Origin: a virus
Length of the DNA: 64,000 nucleotides
IMG/VR virus record: IMGVR_UViG_3300040801_005040
Coordinates: 37,885-101,884 of that record
Direction: 5' to 3' (one strand)
This document shows, one piece after another, positions 24,339 through 49,181 of this stretch; within the stretch, counting starts at the first letter, position 1, and each line of letters starts with the position of its first letter. The position numbers and the translations under genes are program-made. The notes under the pieces are model-generated. The model did not search any database. It saw only the letters and a program-made list of their open reading frames with translations, and had not been told where the DNA came from.

Positions 24339-24505
24339 GATAAACACTTAATTATGAAAAACAGCTCCTATCTCAGGAGTATACATATGTGCAATTCTGA
24401 CATTCTCCTTCACAATTTGTACAGTTTGTTTGCCAGAATCCATTTAGATTTAACTCTTGCATTTTCAAATATATAAAATATTTTATTATGAAAGTAAAAA
24501 ATAAG

Positions 24506-24579
24506 TGGTCTCACCAGGATTTGAACCTGGGACCCTCTGATTATGAGTCAGACGCTCTAACCAGCTGAGCTATGAGACC
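24506..24579 (-). tRNA. tRNA with anticodon CAT (probably Ile2/lysidine type; elongator Met not excluded); CCA not encoded
   Basis: GGTCTCA-TA-GCTCAGCTGGTTAGAGC-G-TCTGA-CTCATAA-TCAGA-GGGTC-CCAGG-TTCAAAT-CCTGG-TGAGACC-A; complete cloverleaf. Confidence 0.93.
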
Positions 24580-33725: not shown

Positions 33726-33793
33726 TGTGTAGAGTTGATTGCTAGTCATCTTTTTAAACATTTATTCTAACATTTATTTTAACACTTAATTTT

Positions 33794-34453
33794 ATGAAAC
33801 CTTTAATCTCAGGAAGTGAAGTCTTCCAACAATTGTCCGATGATCTTAAAGCTAAGATCTCCTCTCTGCCGAAAGAGAAAGTACTTGCTGTTTATATGCG
33901 GAATACATCCACAGATGACAATAAAGTACAAGTAGAATTCGCAGAGAAAATTAACTTGAGTACACAACCTCAAAGTGCCCTTGCTGCATTTAACCCTGGT
34001 GATGAGAGATTCTCATCTGGTGCACGTCGCACCTGGATTACTGCAGACAGGGTGTATGCTGAGAATATGTTTAAGGTATCCATTAAAGATAATGAAGCAT
34101 TTGCTGAAATTGGCCAAGTGCTTAATCCTATCAATGGTGGAACACAAGAGCTGCGTATTCAAGTACGTGAATTCCTTGAGTCTGAAATGACAGACTCTCA
34201 GCGCGAGTATGCTGATAACTACCTGAAAAGGATCCCTTCTACCGGAGCATATTTCTATGCTAAAAATGGTGAAAGGGTGTGTGCAGAAACTCGCCTTGTA
34301 ATTGTCGATAGGGTATGGGATGAGATTGCCAATACATATGTATCTGGTAATCCCGGACATATCCTTATTGAGGGAGAATATAAAACTGCTACTACAACAA
34401 GTGCAGCTTCAATTCTTCAGGCTGCAGGTACCAGCCCTAAATTGGTATCCTAA
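33794..34453 (+). CDS. Hypothetical protein, possibly nucleic-acid binding
   Basis: 219-aa ORF with a long A/T leader. Confidence 0.6.
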   Translation: MKPLISGSEVFQQLSDDLKAKISSLPKEKVLAVYMRNTSTDDNKVQVEFAEKINLSTQPQSALAAFNPGDERFSSGARRTWITADRVYAENMFKVSIKDNEAFAEIGQVLNPINGGTQELRIQVREFLESEMTDSQREYADNYLKRIPSTGAYFYAKNGERVCAETRLVIVDRVWDEIANTYVSGNPGHILIEGEYKTATTTSAASILQAAGTSPKLVS

Positions 34454-34460
34454 CATTTCT

Positions 34461-34489
34461 TTTGACTAGCATTTAATTTTATATATTTG
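34461..34489 (+). promoter_or_regulatory. Bacteroidota-type promoter upstream of tmRNA (TTTG-N17-TATATTTG)
   Basis: TTTG at 34461-64, TATATTTG at 34482-89; followed by hairpin TTCCCCTC..GAGGGGAA. Confidence 0.5.
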
Positions 34490-34839
34490 TTATTCCCCTC
34501 TCAGTAAAATGGGAGGGGAATTTATGGGCCCGTATTGGCTTTGACAATGGTACAGGTTTTTCTATATTCAGCCGTGAGAGATAACACGCTAAAACTAAGG
34601 TGAATTAAGTAAATGGAGACATTTCTCAAATTCAGGCGAACATGAAAGTAGTTGATATGATTATCAATGAAGATGTTCAGGTGGCTGCGTAAACTGCCTT
34701 ATTATTTACGCTTAATTTAGGATTAGACACCCTTCAGTGGAGTTTCCTGTTTCTCTAAAAAGCAGGTGGTGGAGCAACTAGTTTTGCCCTAAGCTGTAAT
34801 AAAATATAGATTAATCATATTATTGGACGAGGGTTCGAT

Positions 34840-35508
34840 TAATTATAGTCGACTTAGAAGGTAACTTCTATGACAAAACTGGATGAATTGCTGGAAAGCT
34901 AAGTGTGAAAACATATGCCAATCAGCAGCCAAGCTTACTGGAAGAAGTAAGAAGGTTCAGAGACTAGGGATACTACGGTAAGCCCACAGCGTCCAGCTCC
35001 TATTTATAGGATGATGATATAGTCCGATACTCTTAAGAAATTAGGAGGAGAAAAAGTTATTAATTACTTTTTCTCGTTTTTGTAAAAGTTCTTTGGTGTA
35101 TTTTCCATTTCTTGGAGTTAAAGAATGTAGTTCTTTTAATAATGATATTCTGTGTACTTTTTTTGAATGTTTAGATTTTAGTTTTGATACTATTAATAAA
35201 CATTTTGGAAAATAAGTATATTTTAAATCATAATTATCAGTATGATTTTTTTCTTTAGCTTTTTTCTTAGATATAAATCCTTTTATTTTTAATTCTTTTA
35301 ATATAAAAGATTGGATATCTTCAAGTATGGATTTTTCATTATTGGAAAAATTTAATTGTACAGTTATTTCTTCATTTCTATGATTTTTAATAGCTGTAAT
35401 TGATCCATCAGCATCAAAGAACCCGGATATATAGTTCCAATTCATATTTATAATATAGTTTTGGACTAAGGTATAAATAATACCTATATCCTGCAAAAAT
35501 AACACTTG
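34840..35508 (+). mobile_element. Group I intron (IA-like, 669 nt) in the tmRNA T-loop
   Basis: P1 with U34839-G34848 wobble; P2 TAGAAG-GTAA-CTTCTA; P3 CTGGATG/CGTCCAG; P4 TTGCTG/CAGCAG; TCAGAGACTA (34957-66) with TAGTCC (35020-25) for P7; extra hairpin between P7 and P3'; P9 with GAAA loop; terminal G35508. Confidence 0.9.
35041..35445 (-). CDS. Single-motif LAGLIDADG homing endonuclease (134 aa), antisense within the intron
   Basis: MNWNYISGFFDADGSITA...LNFSNNEKSILEDIQSF..G.I...K.K; start at ATG 35445 because the longer ORF runs into the tmRNA 3' exon. Confidence 0.88.
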   Translation of the reverse strand: MNWNYISGFFDADGSITAIKNHRNEEITVQLNFSNNEKSILEDIQSFILKELKIKGFISKKKAKEKNHTDNYDLKYTYFPKCLLIVSKLKSKHSKKVHRISLLKELHSLTPRNGKYTKELLQKREKVINNFFSS

Positions 35509-35533
35509 TCCCTCCGGGTCCACTAAAACTAAC

Positions 35534-35557
35534 AAGGAGCTTCATAGCTCCTTTTTT
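35534..35557 (+). terminator. Rho-independent terminator after tmRNA
   Basis: AAGGAGC-TTCATA-GCTCCTT-TTTT. Confidence 0.8.
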
Positions 35558-35569
35558 ATTTAACTAAAA

Positions 35570-41575: not shown

Positions 41576-43931
<2,356 letters not shown>

Positions 43932-45448: not shown

Positions 45449-46495
45449 ATGAAAGGATTTGCAGAAGGTAAACCTTATCCGAGTTATAAAGATGTTTATG
45501 AAAGACTTACTCAAGAGAGTGTATATGCAATGTACACAGGAGGAGTGTTTAAAGCAGGACTTATGACTTCACCCATTGGGGCAAGGGATAGACATGCTTC
45601 TTTCAGTATCTTTTGGAGTCACAGGAAAGGGAAATATTTATTTAAAGAATTCAGATATGGATATACTGGCGATTGTGTTGATCTTGTAAGGTATATCTAT
45701 AACTATAAGGATAACACTCGTGCCTGTATGCGCATTATGCATGATTTTGGCATTGATGATTATCATATAGATTCTGATATTGGATTTCTTCCTTCACCTG
45801 GGAGCAAAGTCAATAAGAGCATTGTTGTAAGCCCACCAAAAAGAGAAGTTGAAATTAAGATTACAGTTAGAGATTGGGTATTCTACGATGTTGTTTTCTG
45901 GGGTCAGTTTGGTATTACAATGAAATGGCTTCAAAGAGGTAATGTTTATCCTATTAGCCATTATTATGTCAATGGATACATGAGACATGCAGATACGTAT
46001 GCTTACGCTTATGTTGAAAATAAAGATGGAATTTTTACATATAAAATATACCAGCCTTTTGCCGACAAGAAAAAGAAATGGCTTAATAGTAACGACTCTT
46101 CTGTTTGGGAATTATGGGATCTTCTTCCAGAGAGGTTTCCAATATTAATAATTACCAAGAGTAGAAAAGATGCATTATCCATAATGTCAACCATTGGTAT
46201 CCCTTCTACTGCGTTACAATCTGAAGGTACAAAACCAAAACCTCAGGTAATGGATGAGCTTAAGAGCAGGTTTGACAGGATTATTGTCTTTTATGATAAT
46301 GATTTTGATAAAGAAACAAACTATGGACTTAAGTATGCGCAGAGCCTTCAAAGGGATTTTGGGCTGGAGATTATGATGCTTCCTTCTGAGTATGGGGAGA
46401 AGGATTATAGTGATTTTGTTAAAAAATATGGGCCAAATAAGGCTCGAAAAGTATTAGAAGAACTGGTAAAAACACTTAATAATGAAAACAGTTAA
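45449..46495 (+). CDS. DNA primase (DnaG/Toprim, crAss-like)
   Basis: SP...D.HASF, FKEF..G..GD, YKIYQP, IITKSRKD, LQSE, FYDND, KD.SD. Confidence 0.88.
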   Translation: MKGFAEGKPYPSYKDVYERLTQESVYAMYTGGVFKAGLMTSPIGARDRHASFSIFWSHRKGKYLFKEFRYGYTGDCVDLVRYIYNYKDNTRACMRIMHDFGIDDYHIDSDIGFLPSPGSKVNKSIVVSPPKREVEIKITVRDWVFYDVVFWGQFGITMKWLQRGNVYPISHYYVNGYMRHADTYAYAYVENKDGIFTYKIYQPFADKKKKWLNSNDSSVWELWDLLPERFPILIITKSRKDALSIMSTIGIPSTALQSEGTKPKPQVMDELKSRFDRIIVFYDNDFDKETNYGLKYAQSLQRDFGLEIMMLPSEYGEKDYSDFVKKYGPNKARKVLEELVKTLNNENS

Positions 46496-49181
46496 CAATC
46501 AGATTTATGATGTTAGAGGGGATGATTATGAAACTATTAAAATGCGCGTTGATGATTCCAAATTGGCAAAGCTTTATGGAATGCTCAGTAACATTTATAG
46601 GAATCCCATCGGCTCTATTGTTAGGGAATATGCTTCTAATGCACATGATGCAAACGTAGAAGCAGATAATTTTAAAAATCTCTCCTGGGAAGAATTATGT
46701 AAAATTTATCCCTGGATAAATGATGCTAACAGTAAGCTTAAACTGACAGAACAAGAATATCTTGAACTTAAGGCTAAGCTAAGTAAAGCAGGTACAGATG
46801 AACCTATAGTAGTGTCTGTTGACAGGAATAAAATGGAGTTTTATGTCAAAGATTATGGTATTGGACTCAGTCCTTCACGCATGCATCATGTATTCTTTAC
46901 TTATTTGTCTTCCACAAAAGAGGATACAGATGGTGAAATTGGTGGTTTTGGCATAGGTGCAAAAAGTGCACTTGCTTATACAAATACCTTTTTCATTGAT
47001 ACTGTTTACAATGGAGTGGAATATAATTACATGATGACTAAGAATGCCGAGGGAATGCCTGAAGGTAAACTTATGCTGTCAAAGGAGAGTAATGACCATA
47101 ATGGAACAATGATTCGCATTCCAATTAAGGAATGGTCTGACATAAAAACATTTGATAAGGAAATAGAGAGAATGCTTCTTTATATGCCTAATGTTTTTTA
47201 TGCTGGAGAAGAACAGTATTGTACTATAAATAAAGATAAACTTTACAAAGGCAAAGGTTGGATTTTAAATTCTTCCCAAAGGTATGATCAAATGCATATA
47301 GTGCTTGATAACATTCCTTATACTATAGATTGGGGAGAACTTGATATAAAAGCTGTTAAAGTACCTCTTGGTCTTACTTTTTCCACTGGTGAAGTTGTAC
47401 CTACTCCTTCAAGGGAATCTCTTCTTTATACTAAGAATACTAAGGATAAAATCATTGAGAGGATAGGTAACATACAGGATTATTACTACCAGAAGAAAGT
47501 TGAAGAAAGCAAACCTACGAATGATTTAATGGTGGCATGGAAAGCTTTAAATGGCTCTTCTAATAAAGTTAATCTTTTTAATGGAGATGATGAAGCTTTT
47601 TATATTGATTTACAAGATCTTTTAAAAGATGCTGTAGGACCAATTACATCTACTGTTAATTCAATTCCAAAAGCAGCTGTTTATGCTCCTTTAGTTACCT
47701 CATCTCTTTCTTTAAAAAAACTTTATAATTTAAGCGAATCTTCTTTCTTTGCTTACGGTGAAATAGAGTTGGGTCGTAATGCAACTGGGAAACTAAAAGT
47801 TTATTCTGAAGACAATTATTATTCTGGAGATGTATCTTATAGAAAGGTTATTAATGACTTAGATGCTGGTACTGCTGTAGTTACTACAAAGCTAAAAGTA
47901 AATCAACTTGAGGTTCATTATTTTCTTGAGAAGAAGTTTGATTATGGTAAAATTCAAAATCTTATCAGAAGTGGAAATTGGATCTCAAACCTTAAAATAT
48001 ATCGTTTAAGGAATATGAATCATAGCACTTATGAAAGAGTATTTCAACTTAAGCAATTTGAAAAAAGTCAATGGGATCCAACTATAGAAGGAATCAAAGC
48101 AGTTGATAATTTTATTAAAGACCATGCTCATAATTTAGATGTACTTGTTGACCCTAATTATAACAGACTTTATCGTGCTGGTAAGTGTAAATTTAAACCT
48201 AAAGCTACAAGTTTAATTCCAGATGGAGTTTATAGCACTAAGATTTATTACAAAGGTATTGAGGCATCAGGATCAACAGTAAAACAAATTCCAGCAGGTA
48301 ATCTTAAGAGTTTAGATTCAAGAGGTTTGCCTAACCCCATAGTAATATATGGAGACAATACTCAGATACAGAATTTAAAGCTCATAAGGGATTTAATTGT
48401 TGCTTATACCGATTCTAAACCAAGAAGTCAAAGTAAGAAAAAGGCCAAATACAGGAATCTTAGTCAAGCGTGTGAATTTGTAATAATTTATAAAAAGGAT
48501 GTAAGTAAAATAAAACAATTTCAAATGGATAATTGGTATCACGTAGAAGATGTGAATTCTGGTAAGTTTAAACCTTTACAAAGAGTTGCAACTGCTAATT
48601 ATATGCGGAAAACCATGTTAAGGTATAATCTTAACTTAAATGATGCTATAGGATTATCTTTAGATCTTCAAAATGATTTAGCTGTAATAAATAAGTATAT
48701 TGATACTAATGTTGAGCGTTATAAGAATGTTATTTCTTATAATAATCAAGATGCTGATTTACTTGAATTTATAACAGAATCTCATATTAAAAATGATGCT
48801 CTTGACTGGTTAATGATGGAAAGGTTTTTACGTATTAAAAAACTTTTCTCAAGAAGTATTGCTCTTAATGTTCATTTGGGTTATCATCTTGAACCACATG
48901 GGTCTGCTGGAATGTCTCATACTTTAATGAGAAAGTATCATATAGCACAGAATTTAATTAGAGAAGGGGTTCCTGTTGACATAATCTTTCATGATAGTTT
49001 CAGAGACTATGTTCTTTCTCAATATGTGCTTAATGATTCAGTATCTTATAGATATGTTATGTATTCTGTACATGAATCTTCTGCAGTTACTTGTTTGTAT
49101 GAGGATTTTTATGGTCAGGATGAATATTTAAAACAAATACCAGATGAGACAGATAAAGGGGGATTTGCTAAAGCTGTTTAA
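46482..49181 (+). CDS. rIIA: rIIA-like protein (GHKL ATPase N-terminus)
   Basis: IYRNPIGSIVREYASNAHDA, VKDYGIGLS, SSTK....IGGFGIGAKS. Confidence 0.85.
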   Translation: MKTVNNQIYDVRGDDYETIKMRVDDSKLAKLYGMLSNIYRNPIGSIVREYASNAHDANVEADNFKNLSWEELCKIYPWINDANSKLKLTEQEYLELKAKLSKAGTDEPIVVSVDRNKMEFYVKDYGIGLSPSRMHHVFFTYLSSTKEDTDGEIGGFGIGAKSALAYTNTFFIDTVYNGVEYNYMMTKNAEGMPEGKLMLSKESNDHNGTMIRIPIKEWSDIKTFDKEIERMLLYMPNVFYAGEEQYCTINKDKLYKGKGWILNSSQRYDQMHIVLDNIPYTIDWGELDIKAVKVPLGLTFSTGEVVPTPSRESLLYTKNTKDKIIERIGNIQDYYYQKKVEESKPTNDLMVAWKALNGSSNKVNLFNGDDEAFYIDLQDLLKDAVGPITSTVNSIPKAAVYAPLVTSSLSLKKLYNLSESSFFAYGEIELGRNATGKLKVYSEDNYYSGDVSYRKVINDLDAGTAVVTTKLKVNQLEVHYFLEKKFDYGKIQNLIRSGNWISNLKIYRLRNMNHSTYERVFQLKQFEKSQWDPTIEGIKAVDNFIKDHAHNLDVLVDPNYNRLYRAGKCKFKPKATSLIPDGVYSTKIYYKGIEASGSTVKQIPAGNLKSLDSRGLPNPIVIYGDNTQIQNLKLIRDLIVAYTDSKPRSQSKKKAKYRNLSQACEFVIIYKKDVSKIKQFQMDNWYHVEDVNSGKFKPLQRVATANYMRKTMLRYNLNLNDAIGLSLDLQNDLAVINKYIDTNVERYKNVISYNNQDADLLEFITESHIKNDALDWLMMERFLRIKKLFSRSIALNVHLGYHLEPHGSAGMSHTLMRKYHIAQNLIREGVPVDIIFHDSFRDYVLSQYVLNDSVSYRYVMYSVHESSAVTCLYEDFYGQDEYLKQIPDETDKGGFAKAV

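Follow-up and report, generated by a model that had tools for sequence, protein, structure and literature searches.

A phage-borne tmRNA gene whose T-loop is split by a group I intron with an antisense LAGLIDADG gene

Can a phage carry a transfer-messenger RNA (tmRNA) gene in two pieces, to be made whole only when a self-splicing intron leaves its T-loop? The question is raised by a locus at 34526–35522 of a 64,000-nt stretch of viral DNA, which we call the window and which comprises bases 37885–101884 of the 101,884-bp IMG/VR record IMGVR_UViG_3300040801_005040 (positions below are those of the window). A split of this kind had been proposed from the letters alone, in what we refer to as the original prediction. 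Covariance models, covariation in 27 homologous introns and a clade of phage tmRNAs (about 80 loci sampled, mostly intronless) support reading the locus as a phage-borne one-piece tmRNA gene with its T-loop split by a group I intron. We consider it highly probable that this intron-form gene is spliced to a 328-nt tmRNA and that the intron is mobile by means of its own LAGLIDADG endonuclease. The parts of the gene and its insert are as follows:

34526–34839, plus strand: tmRNA exon 1 (Rfam family RF00023), with acceptor 5' strand GGGCCCG, D-loop-like block UGGCUUUGAC, pseudoknot 1 (PK1) region and tag frame; its 3' part holds the helices downstream of the tag, T stem 5' strand GAGGG and loop bases TTCGAT
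34615–34692, plus strand: tag reading frame, with resume codon GGA after UAAAU, placed by the Rfam alignment
34840–35508, plus strand: group I intron, 669 nt long, which parts loop bases 6 and 7 (T-loop subsite 7)
35041–35448, minus strand: LAGLIDADG homing endonuclease gene of 135 aa, with its ATG at 35448, located after intron helix P9 and antisense to the tmRNA
35509–35522, plus strand: tmRNA exon 2, with last T-loop base T, CCCTC, acceptor 3' strand CGGGTCC and discriminator A

The two exons and their phage relatives

The tRNA-like domain becomes complete once 34840–35508 is removed, as had been proposed. The acceptor strand GGGCCCG (34526–34532) then pairs with CGGGTCC (35515–35521) at 7/7 positions, including the predicted G3-U70, and is followed by discriminator A35522; the T stem pairs GAGGG (34829–34833) with CCCTC (35510–35514) at 5/5 positions; and joining TTCGAT to T35509 restores a T-loop of 7 nt, TTCGATT. 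When both strands of the window were searched, the two stems could be completed solely at 35510, and the chance expectation for completing both within 2 kb downstream is 0.015. The spliced RNA has 314 + 14 = 328 nt, with GGTTCGAT joined to TCCCTCCGG at the predicted exon junction, and this length and that of the intron agree with those first given; CCA is not encoded by exon 2.

Exon 1 is recognised as tmRNA in its own right. Against 34480–34839 alone, with a 3'-truncated match allowed, RF00023 aligns 357 of its 374 positions (1–357) to 34526–34839 with 33.2 bits (E = 7e-12), and the ends of this match are exactly the exon limits of the original prediction. The tag frame comprises 25 codons (34615–34689; GDISQIQANMKVVDMIINEDVQVAA) ending in VAA before the stop codon TAA at 34690–34692, so that the tag closes with a hydrophobic-Ala-Ala degron. 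Standard finders had been expected to miss the gene, and they do: a scan of the whole window with Rfam at gathering thresholds reported no tmRNA, and ARAGORN, whose single call on the window is a tRNA-Met at 24505–24579, found no tmRNA in the genomic sequence or in 132 in-silico junction variants.

The closest relatives of this tmRNA are viral. Aligned at full length, the spliced sequence is 58–62% identical to the viral tmRNAs of loci L023–L035 and 40–45% identical to bacterial tmRNAs of Bacteroidota. A search of IMG/VR for the PK1 block that these phage tmRNAs have in common (AGAGAUAAC...AAACUAAGGUGAA) gave at least 119 contigs, from which 79 clade loci were covered by a census of introns. 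Intronless alleles, which the original prediction had suggested seeking in related phage contigs, proved to be the rule: the tmRNA is continuous in 69/79 loci, carries an intron at subsite 3 in 2/79, and is unresolved in 8/79, four of which are cut by locus ends. RF00023 scored 50–95 bits on 12 of 14 intronless members. The window gene keeps the D-loop-like block, the PK1 block and the resume context (UAAAU followed by GG) of the clade, its tag motif ..Q.xANMxKV.. ending in AA, and the later blocks GUGGUGGA and UAAGCUGUA. The acceptor and T stems covary among members, with acceptor variants GGGCCCG/CGGGUCC in the window, GGGCUCG/CGAGUCC in L119 and GGGGGUG/CACCUCC in others.

Tags of the clade are about 24–37 residues long with a core ..AQI.ANM.KVFSL...E.V.VAA (window, L027, L031, L068, L080, L121 and others), beside the 9-residue G..NYALAA tags of bacterial neighbours, and the conservation of so long a tag suggests a function beyond that of a simple degron. 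A homologue of the window's capsid protein (42–44% identity over the full length) is present in 4/5 of the tmRNA-bearing records tested, which are about 100 kb in size, some with terminal repeats. Taken together, the common capsid, the record size and the mostly intronless tmRNA indicate that the tmRNA is a feature of the lineage and the intron a sporadic insertion. The host of this lineage of roughly 100-kb phages is probably a member of Bacteroidota.

Several further observations concern the clade. In four loci (L072, L088, L118, L129) the PK1 block is present, but neither a T arm nor an acceptor 3' strand was recognisable by our rules, and the intron core had no match; their tmRNA may be interrupted in some other way, or diverged. 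In L101 (7148–10038) an array of about 18 tRNA genes directly follows the clade tmRNA. An exact search with the 29-mer of the intronless T-arm and acceptor returned seven viral contigs whose tmRNAs, some standard and some two-piece, are unrelated, and was set aside as reflecting T-arm conservation alone. Queries of IMG/VR with the upstream open reading frame (ORF), the helicase or a 25-mer from the tmRNA 5' end yielded no close relatives of the phage, and a 31-mer from PK1 specific to the window had no match in the metagenome scan.

The source genome is a real tailed phage, as judged by its portal, large terminase, major head protein and DNA polymerase genes (PHROGs matches), a CheckV completeness of 100% and the mid-genome position of the tmRNA gene (at about 72.4 kb of the record). 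RNase H and helicase genes lie downstream of the tmRNA, which has phage genes on both sides. That the locus is no phage gene at all, and comes either from host DNA (a tmRNA used for integration, where a prophage border lies) or from a chimeric assembly, we regard as extremely improbable. tmRNA genes are described as common integration sites in the 2025 tmRNA database paper (PMC11915505), and in IMG/VR contigs L003, L005 and L008 tmRNA ends do lie near contig termini. The present gene, however, lies some 72 kb into a complete 101.9-kb record with phage genes on either side, and its tmRNA body clusters with phage rather than bacterial tmRNAs, from phages that have a capsid gene in common. PHROGs matches in the same phage also include a full GroEL homologue (window 42294–43931; PHROG 5725, E = 2e-140) and an rIIA-like protein (window 46482–49181).

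The intron, its endonuclease gene and the predicted splicing

The insert is a group I intron with a complete core. In the whole-window scan, the Rfam model Intron_gpI (RF00028) matched 34831–35047 over its full length (1–253 of 253) with 103.4 bits (gathering score 50), and the ribozyme core P1–P9 occupies 34840–35047, with P9 ending at 35047. In P1, exon bases UCGAU (34835–34839) pair with the intron guide GUCGA (34848–34852), and the U-G wobble that marks the 5' splice site involves U34839; the last intron base is G35508, so that both boundary marks of the original prediction are found, as is the additional hairpin it had placed between P7 and P3' (P7.1, 21 nt). The ribozyme is IA-like. Among T-loop subsites, only 7 gives the window gene a canonical loop along with a U ahead of the splice site and G as the last intron base. 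Placement at subsite 3, where clade relatives carry their introns, was tried and rejected, giving the loop TTCTTGT and a terminal A.

The P2–P9 helices first read from a single sequence are borne out by comparison. RNAalifold, applied to an alignment of 27 non-identical intron cores, recovers P2, P3, P4/P5, P6, the P7.1 hairpin, P8 and P9, and 36/44 consensus pairs show compensatory double changes across these homologous introns. Variants of the window's own P3, P6, P8 and P9 are among them (for P3, CUGGA/UCCAG versus UUGCU/AGCAA). The P3–P9 core of the window is about 70% identical to that of the subsite-3 introns in its phage relatives, whereas its P1–P2 and the 3' end of the intron resemble the subsite-7 and subsite-8 group instead, a mixture from which we conclude that one intron lineage was retargeted inside the T-loop, or recombined.

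The 460 nt after the core hold the endonuclease gene, which runs against the tmRNA and reaches into the 3' strand of P9 with its stop codon. Its product begins MNWNYISGFFDADGS, contains the motif GFFDADGS and matches Pfam LAGLIDADG_3 with E = 4e-9 (37 bits versus a cutoff of 22.5); a large protein collection holds 170 homologues of about 133–135 aa. All 22/22 invariant columns of a 34-member family alignment are kept in the window protein, from which the gene appears intact. A possible -7 promoter element TATTTTTG (35494–35501, minus strand) can be read from the sequence about 46 nt upstream of its ATG. The most likely target is intronless T-arm DNA, which is nearly palindromic: we infer site-specific cleavage of the intronless allele from the association of this endonuclease family with the intron in about 36 loci.

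Four further features bear on transcription:

34482–34489, plus strand: -7 promoter-like element TATATTTG (TAnnTTTG, Bacteroidota type), read from the sequence; putative tmRNA promoter
34495–34518, plus strand: 9-bp hairpin between the upstream ORF (which ends at 34453) and the tmRNA 5' end
35048–35085, plus strand: terminator-like A/U-rich hairpin (35048–35075) followed by GTTTTTG, found by consensus scan, inside the intron and over the last codons of the endonuclease gene
35534–35560, plus strand: intrinsic terminator-like hairpin (8 bp, 35534–35553) with a T run, 12 nt past the tmRNA 3' end

In proposing TATATTTG as a possible promoter we take TAnnTTTG to be the Bacteroidota-type -7 consensus; a TTTG lies upstream of it at 34461–34464. 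The hairpin at 34495–34518 may either end transcription of the upstream gene or belong to the tmRNA leader.

On the reading we prefer, transcription would start near 34.49 kb and yield a precursor that ends at the 35.55-kb terminator, and the IA-like ribozyme (34840–35508) would pair its guide GUCGA with exon UCGAU, cut after U34839 and ligate U34839 to T35509, past terminal G35508. Ligation would rebuild the T arm GAGGG/TTCGATT/CCCTC and bring the acceptor 3' strand alongside, and G3-U70 in the resulting 328-nt RNA would direct charging with alanine, presumably by the host alanyl-tRNA synthetase. With its ends processed and CCA added by the host, and with host SmpB bound, this RNA would then place the 25-residue tag ending in VAA on stalled nascent chains. 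In evolutionary terms, the tmRNA would be inherited within the lineage of roughly 100-kb phages and the intron would be a sporadic mobile insertion spread by its LAGLIDADG endonuclease. The analysis establishes the anatomy of the gene, the families to which both RNAs and the protein belong, the covariation, the existence of intronless relatives and the phage setting; splicing in vivo and trans-translation are inferred.

Sequencing data are available from four runs of one microbial-mat sample, three of RNA and one probably of DNA, with few contigs and a depth of about 5. Contigs from the three RNA libraries, all 100% identical to the window, cover 33767–34461 (the upstream ORF) and exon 1 (34540–34840), which gives weak support for transcription. 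The stretch 34841–35508 has no RNA contigs, which at this depth and with so few contigs carries no weight. One 304-nt RNA-library contig ends in 3 unaligned letters just past 34840, which could fit a spliced end and was not counted. The upstream ORF encodes 219 aa of no clear family, has RNA-library contigs in all three libraries and may be a highly expressed phage gene.

A number of points weigh against a functional, spliced tmRNA. Both covariance models had been expected to hit: that for the intron does so above its gathering score, and that for the tmRNA gives a match only as a 3'-truncated one, which has 33.2 bits where the gathering score is 47. Even when spliced in silico, the tmRNA is not accepted by ARAGORN. 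The tag, with 25 residues and ending VAA, departs from the canonical G..NYALAA of Bacteroidota, and no SmpB gene was found in the phage record. There is practically no P10 pairing to the 3' exon, and the hairpin and T run at 35048–35085, lying on the sense strand within the intron, might cut the precursor short. Finally, no contig of the four microbial-mat runs, few and shallow as these are, joins 34839 to 35509, and an exact 37-mer across the spliced junction had 0 matches in metagenome and metatranscriptome contigs of the Joint Genome Institute (JGI).

Four of these points (the internal hairpin, the lack of P10, the ARAGORN rejection and a spliced junction found in none of the collections searched) would fit a decaying pseudogene, a tmRNA disabled by a selfish intron through poor splicing or internal termination. 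We give little weight to the ARAGORN result because the program also misses 36/70 intronless members of the phage tmRNA clade, about half of them. The state of the gene speaks against decay: all conserved ribozyme elements and the boundary rules are intact, the acceptor and T stems are perfect, and the PK1 of the clade and an open tag frame with its motif are retained, while two tmRNA genes on bacterial chromosomes (L055, L056) tolerate the same architecture. We accordingly think a pseudogene quite improbable.

Coverage of exon 1 by RNA-library contigs could also be accommodated if splicing were unneeded and exon 1 alone, or a two-piece RNA joined by base pairing, served as a mimic or decoy against host tmRNA-SmpB; a precedent is the tag-less tmRNA-like RNA of phage DS6A, reported to inhibit host tmRNA (cited in PMC11915505). 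Exon 1, however, is without the 3' strands of the acceptor and T stems and hence not chargeable, and exon 2 is conserved and complementary to the unusual acceptor 5' strand of this very phage, an indication that the rejoined molecule has been selected for. With an ordinary continuous gene in 69/79 relatives as well, a decoy role strikes us as very improbable, and we retain the reading of a tmRNA restored by splicing.

One intron family in phages and Bacteroidota

How widely does this arrangement occur? Searching with an aligned endonuclease family brought up 35 viral and 18 genome loci, the latter nearly all from Bacteroidota (Flavobacteriales, Vicingaceae, Prolixibacteraceae, Saprospiraceae, Ekhidna and Marinoscillum), and an intron core of the window's type adjoins an endonuclease homologue, in both orientations, in about 36 loci. 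Split tmRNAs were reconstructed under fixed rules: an acceptor stem of 7/7 pairs with G3-U70, a T stem of 5/5, a 7-nt loop, a U before the splice site and a G at the intron end. These rules rebuild a split tmRNA in 31/36 loci, and as a positive control ARAGORN accepts 24/31 of the sequences spliced in silico. The bacterial split loci encode the canonical Bacteroidota tags GENNYALAA and GESNYALAA, and the viral loci long tags.

Homologous units in viruses and on Bacteroidota chromosomes occupy T-loop subsites 3, 7 and 8. Viral introns are mostly at subsite 3, with two at subsite 8; the window's intron is at subsite 7, like those of the bacterial loci L045, L054, L055 and L056. The original prediction had called the phage setting very unusual; this view has to be given up, since at least 21 other viral contigs in IMG/VR have a tmRNA split by homologous intron/endonuclease units, and in the 735-kb GenBank phage LR756501 a tmRNA is followed by a T-loop group I intron (96 bits in Rfam). 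A scan with the subsite-7 P1 signature added seven viral contigs, five of which rebuild as split tmRNAs that ARAGORN accepts after in-silico splicing, with Rfam Intron_gpI below its gathering score on these five. We conclude that the same intron and endonuclease family probably circulates between chromosomal tmRNA genes of Bacteroidota and those of phages.

Individual loci show further variety. Of the reconstructed loci, 13 have the post-P9 endonuclease gene in sense orientation and 18, the window included, have it antisense (L012–L019, L037 and L047–L053 versus L010, L023–L035, L055 and L056), so that the gene must have been inverted at least once or inserted independently. In L045 and L054 (metagenome-assembled genomes of Flavobacteriales and Vicingaceae) and in the viral L013, the tmRNA is split by introns of 210–225 nt without an endonuclease gene, and a homologous LAGLIDADG gene stands free directly past the tmRNA 3' end. 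For the intron-tmRNA locus of LR756501.1 (L001; 716749–719896, reverse complement, 1149–1765), a 7-nt loop cannot be combined with both a U ahead of the splice site and a final G, wherever the boundaries are set, and L021 behaves alike; at subsite 3, L001 rebuilds the loop TTCGAAT with A as the last intron base. The five loci rebuilt from the P1 scan (L181, L182, L185, L186 and L187, from viral contigs of 42–275 kb) have subsite-7 inserts of 195–777 nt with a P1-like start, GGTTCGAT...GTCGAC, and these may be divergent or reduced introns.

The closest architectural match to the window is bacterial. Two Flavobacteriaceae loci, L055 (JADZFW010000081) and L056 (JANTFO010000030), resemble it in the use of subsite 7, the P1 guide GGTCGAC, the 3' intron end TAACAYTTG and an antisense post-P9 LAGLIDADG gene, in introns of 657–658 nt (658 in L056) compared with 669 nt, and 25 nt of exon flank in L056 agree letter for letter with the window (TTGGACGAGGGTTCGAT before and TCCCTCCG after the insertion point). 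They differ in the tmRNA itself, which has 396 nt, a body about 40% identical to the window's and the canonical tag GESNYALAA; their endonucleases are 39–45% identical to that of the window, and the flanking genes are cellular. L056 in particular is flanked by cellular metabolic genes, which identifies it as a chromosomal gene of a Flavobacteriaceae bacterium.

This shared site allows a bolder reading, in which intron and endonuclease form a module of weapon and immunity that cuts the T-arm DNA of intronless host ssrA and of co-infecting relatives. Host ssrA is suggested as a target by the identical 25-nt sequence in the Flavobacteriaceae gene, and co-infecting relatives by the 69/79 clade loci that are intronless. 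We consider this unlikely. If it were true, the phage's own tmRNA copy would be shielded by the intron, the infected cell would be shifted towards a phage tmRNA with the long ..ANM.KV.. tag, and introns could pass in both directions between host and phage genomes by way of the T-arm site.

Relation to known systems and significance

The original prediction had described T-loop introns as known from a few bacterial tmRNA genes, which proves to be an understatement: the tmRNA database paper reports 883 unique intron-form tmRNA sequences in 21 phyla, the form having first been described in Clostridium botulinum (PMC11915505). The same paper gives four T-loop subsites, of which 7 is the main one and 3 and 8 are others, places endonuclease genes in 4% of the catalogued cases, after P9 or in P7.1, and states that the tmRNA_intron covariance model is not part of Rfam. 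The window gene resembles these bacterial genes in its T-psi-C loop group I intron at main subsite 7, the U-G pair in P1, the terminal G and the IA-like core with a P7.1 region, and its post-P9 LAGLIDADG gene has a counterpart in four cases of the catalogue (PMC11915505). It differs in lying in a phage genome and in having a tmRNA body from a phage clade with a 25-residue tag. Its endonuclease gene is antisense, and the orientation of such genes in bacterial intron-form tmRNAs was not found discussed in the text consulted.

Compared with its phage relatives (for instance L119, L103, L023 and L027, from phages of about 100 kb), the gene shares the PK1 block, the UAAAU-GG resume context, ..ANM.KV.. 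tags ending in AA and the capsid; the clade differs in being mostly intronless, and its introns lie at subsite 3 with a different P1, whereas the window's lies at 7. Group I introns with homing endonucleases are familiar from phages, in td, nrdB and sunY of T4, in the DNA polymerase genes of SPO1 and SP82 and in Twort, where they interrupt protein-coding genes, mostly with sense-oriented GIY-YIG or HNH enzymes. The intron described here instead splits a structural RNA that is also encoded by the host. Our literature search, which covered few subscription journals, found no published intron-form tmRNA in a phage.

The gene form is thus already well described in bacteria, and the basic mechanism is textbook. 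What is new here is its occurrence, and repeated occurrence, in phages, together with an intact antisense endonuclease gene, a large phage tmRNA clade with mostly intronless relatives, and split loci in both viruses and Bacteroidota. The intron-form tmRNA is extended by these findings from bacterial chromosomes to phages, where annotation pipelines (ARAGORN, and Rfam at gathering score) miss intron-split tmRNA genes entirely. With a long-tag clade and one intron family at three subsites, in two endonuclease orientations and in both phages and Bacteroidota chromosomes, the comparative set offers a natural system for following how a mobile ribozyme is retargeted inside a 7-nt loop, and how it may pass between the tmRNA gene of a host and that of a phage.

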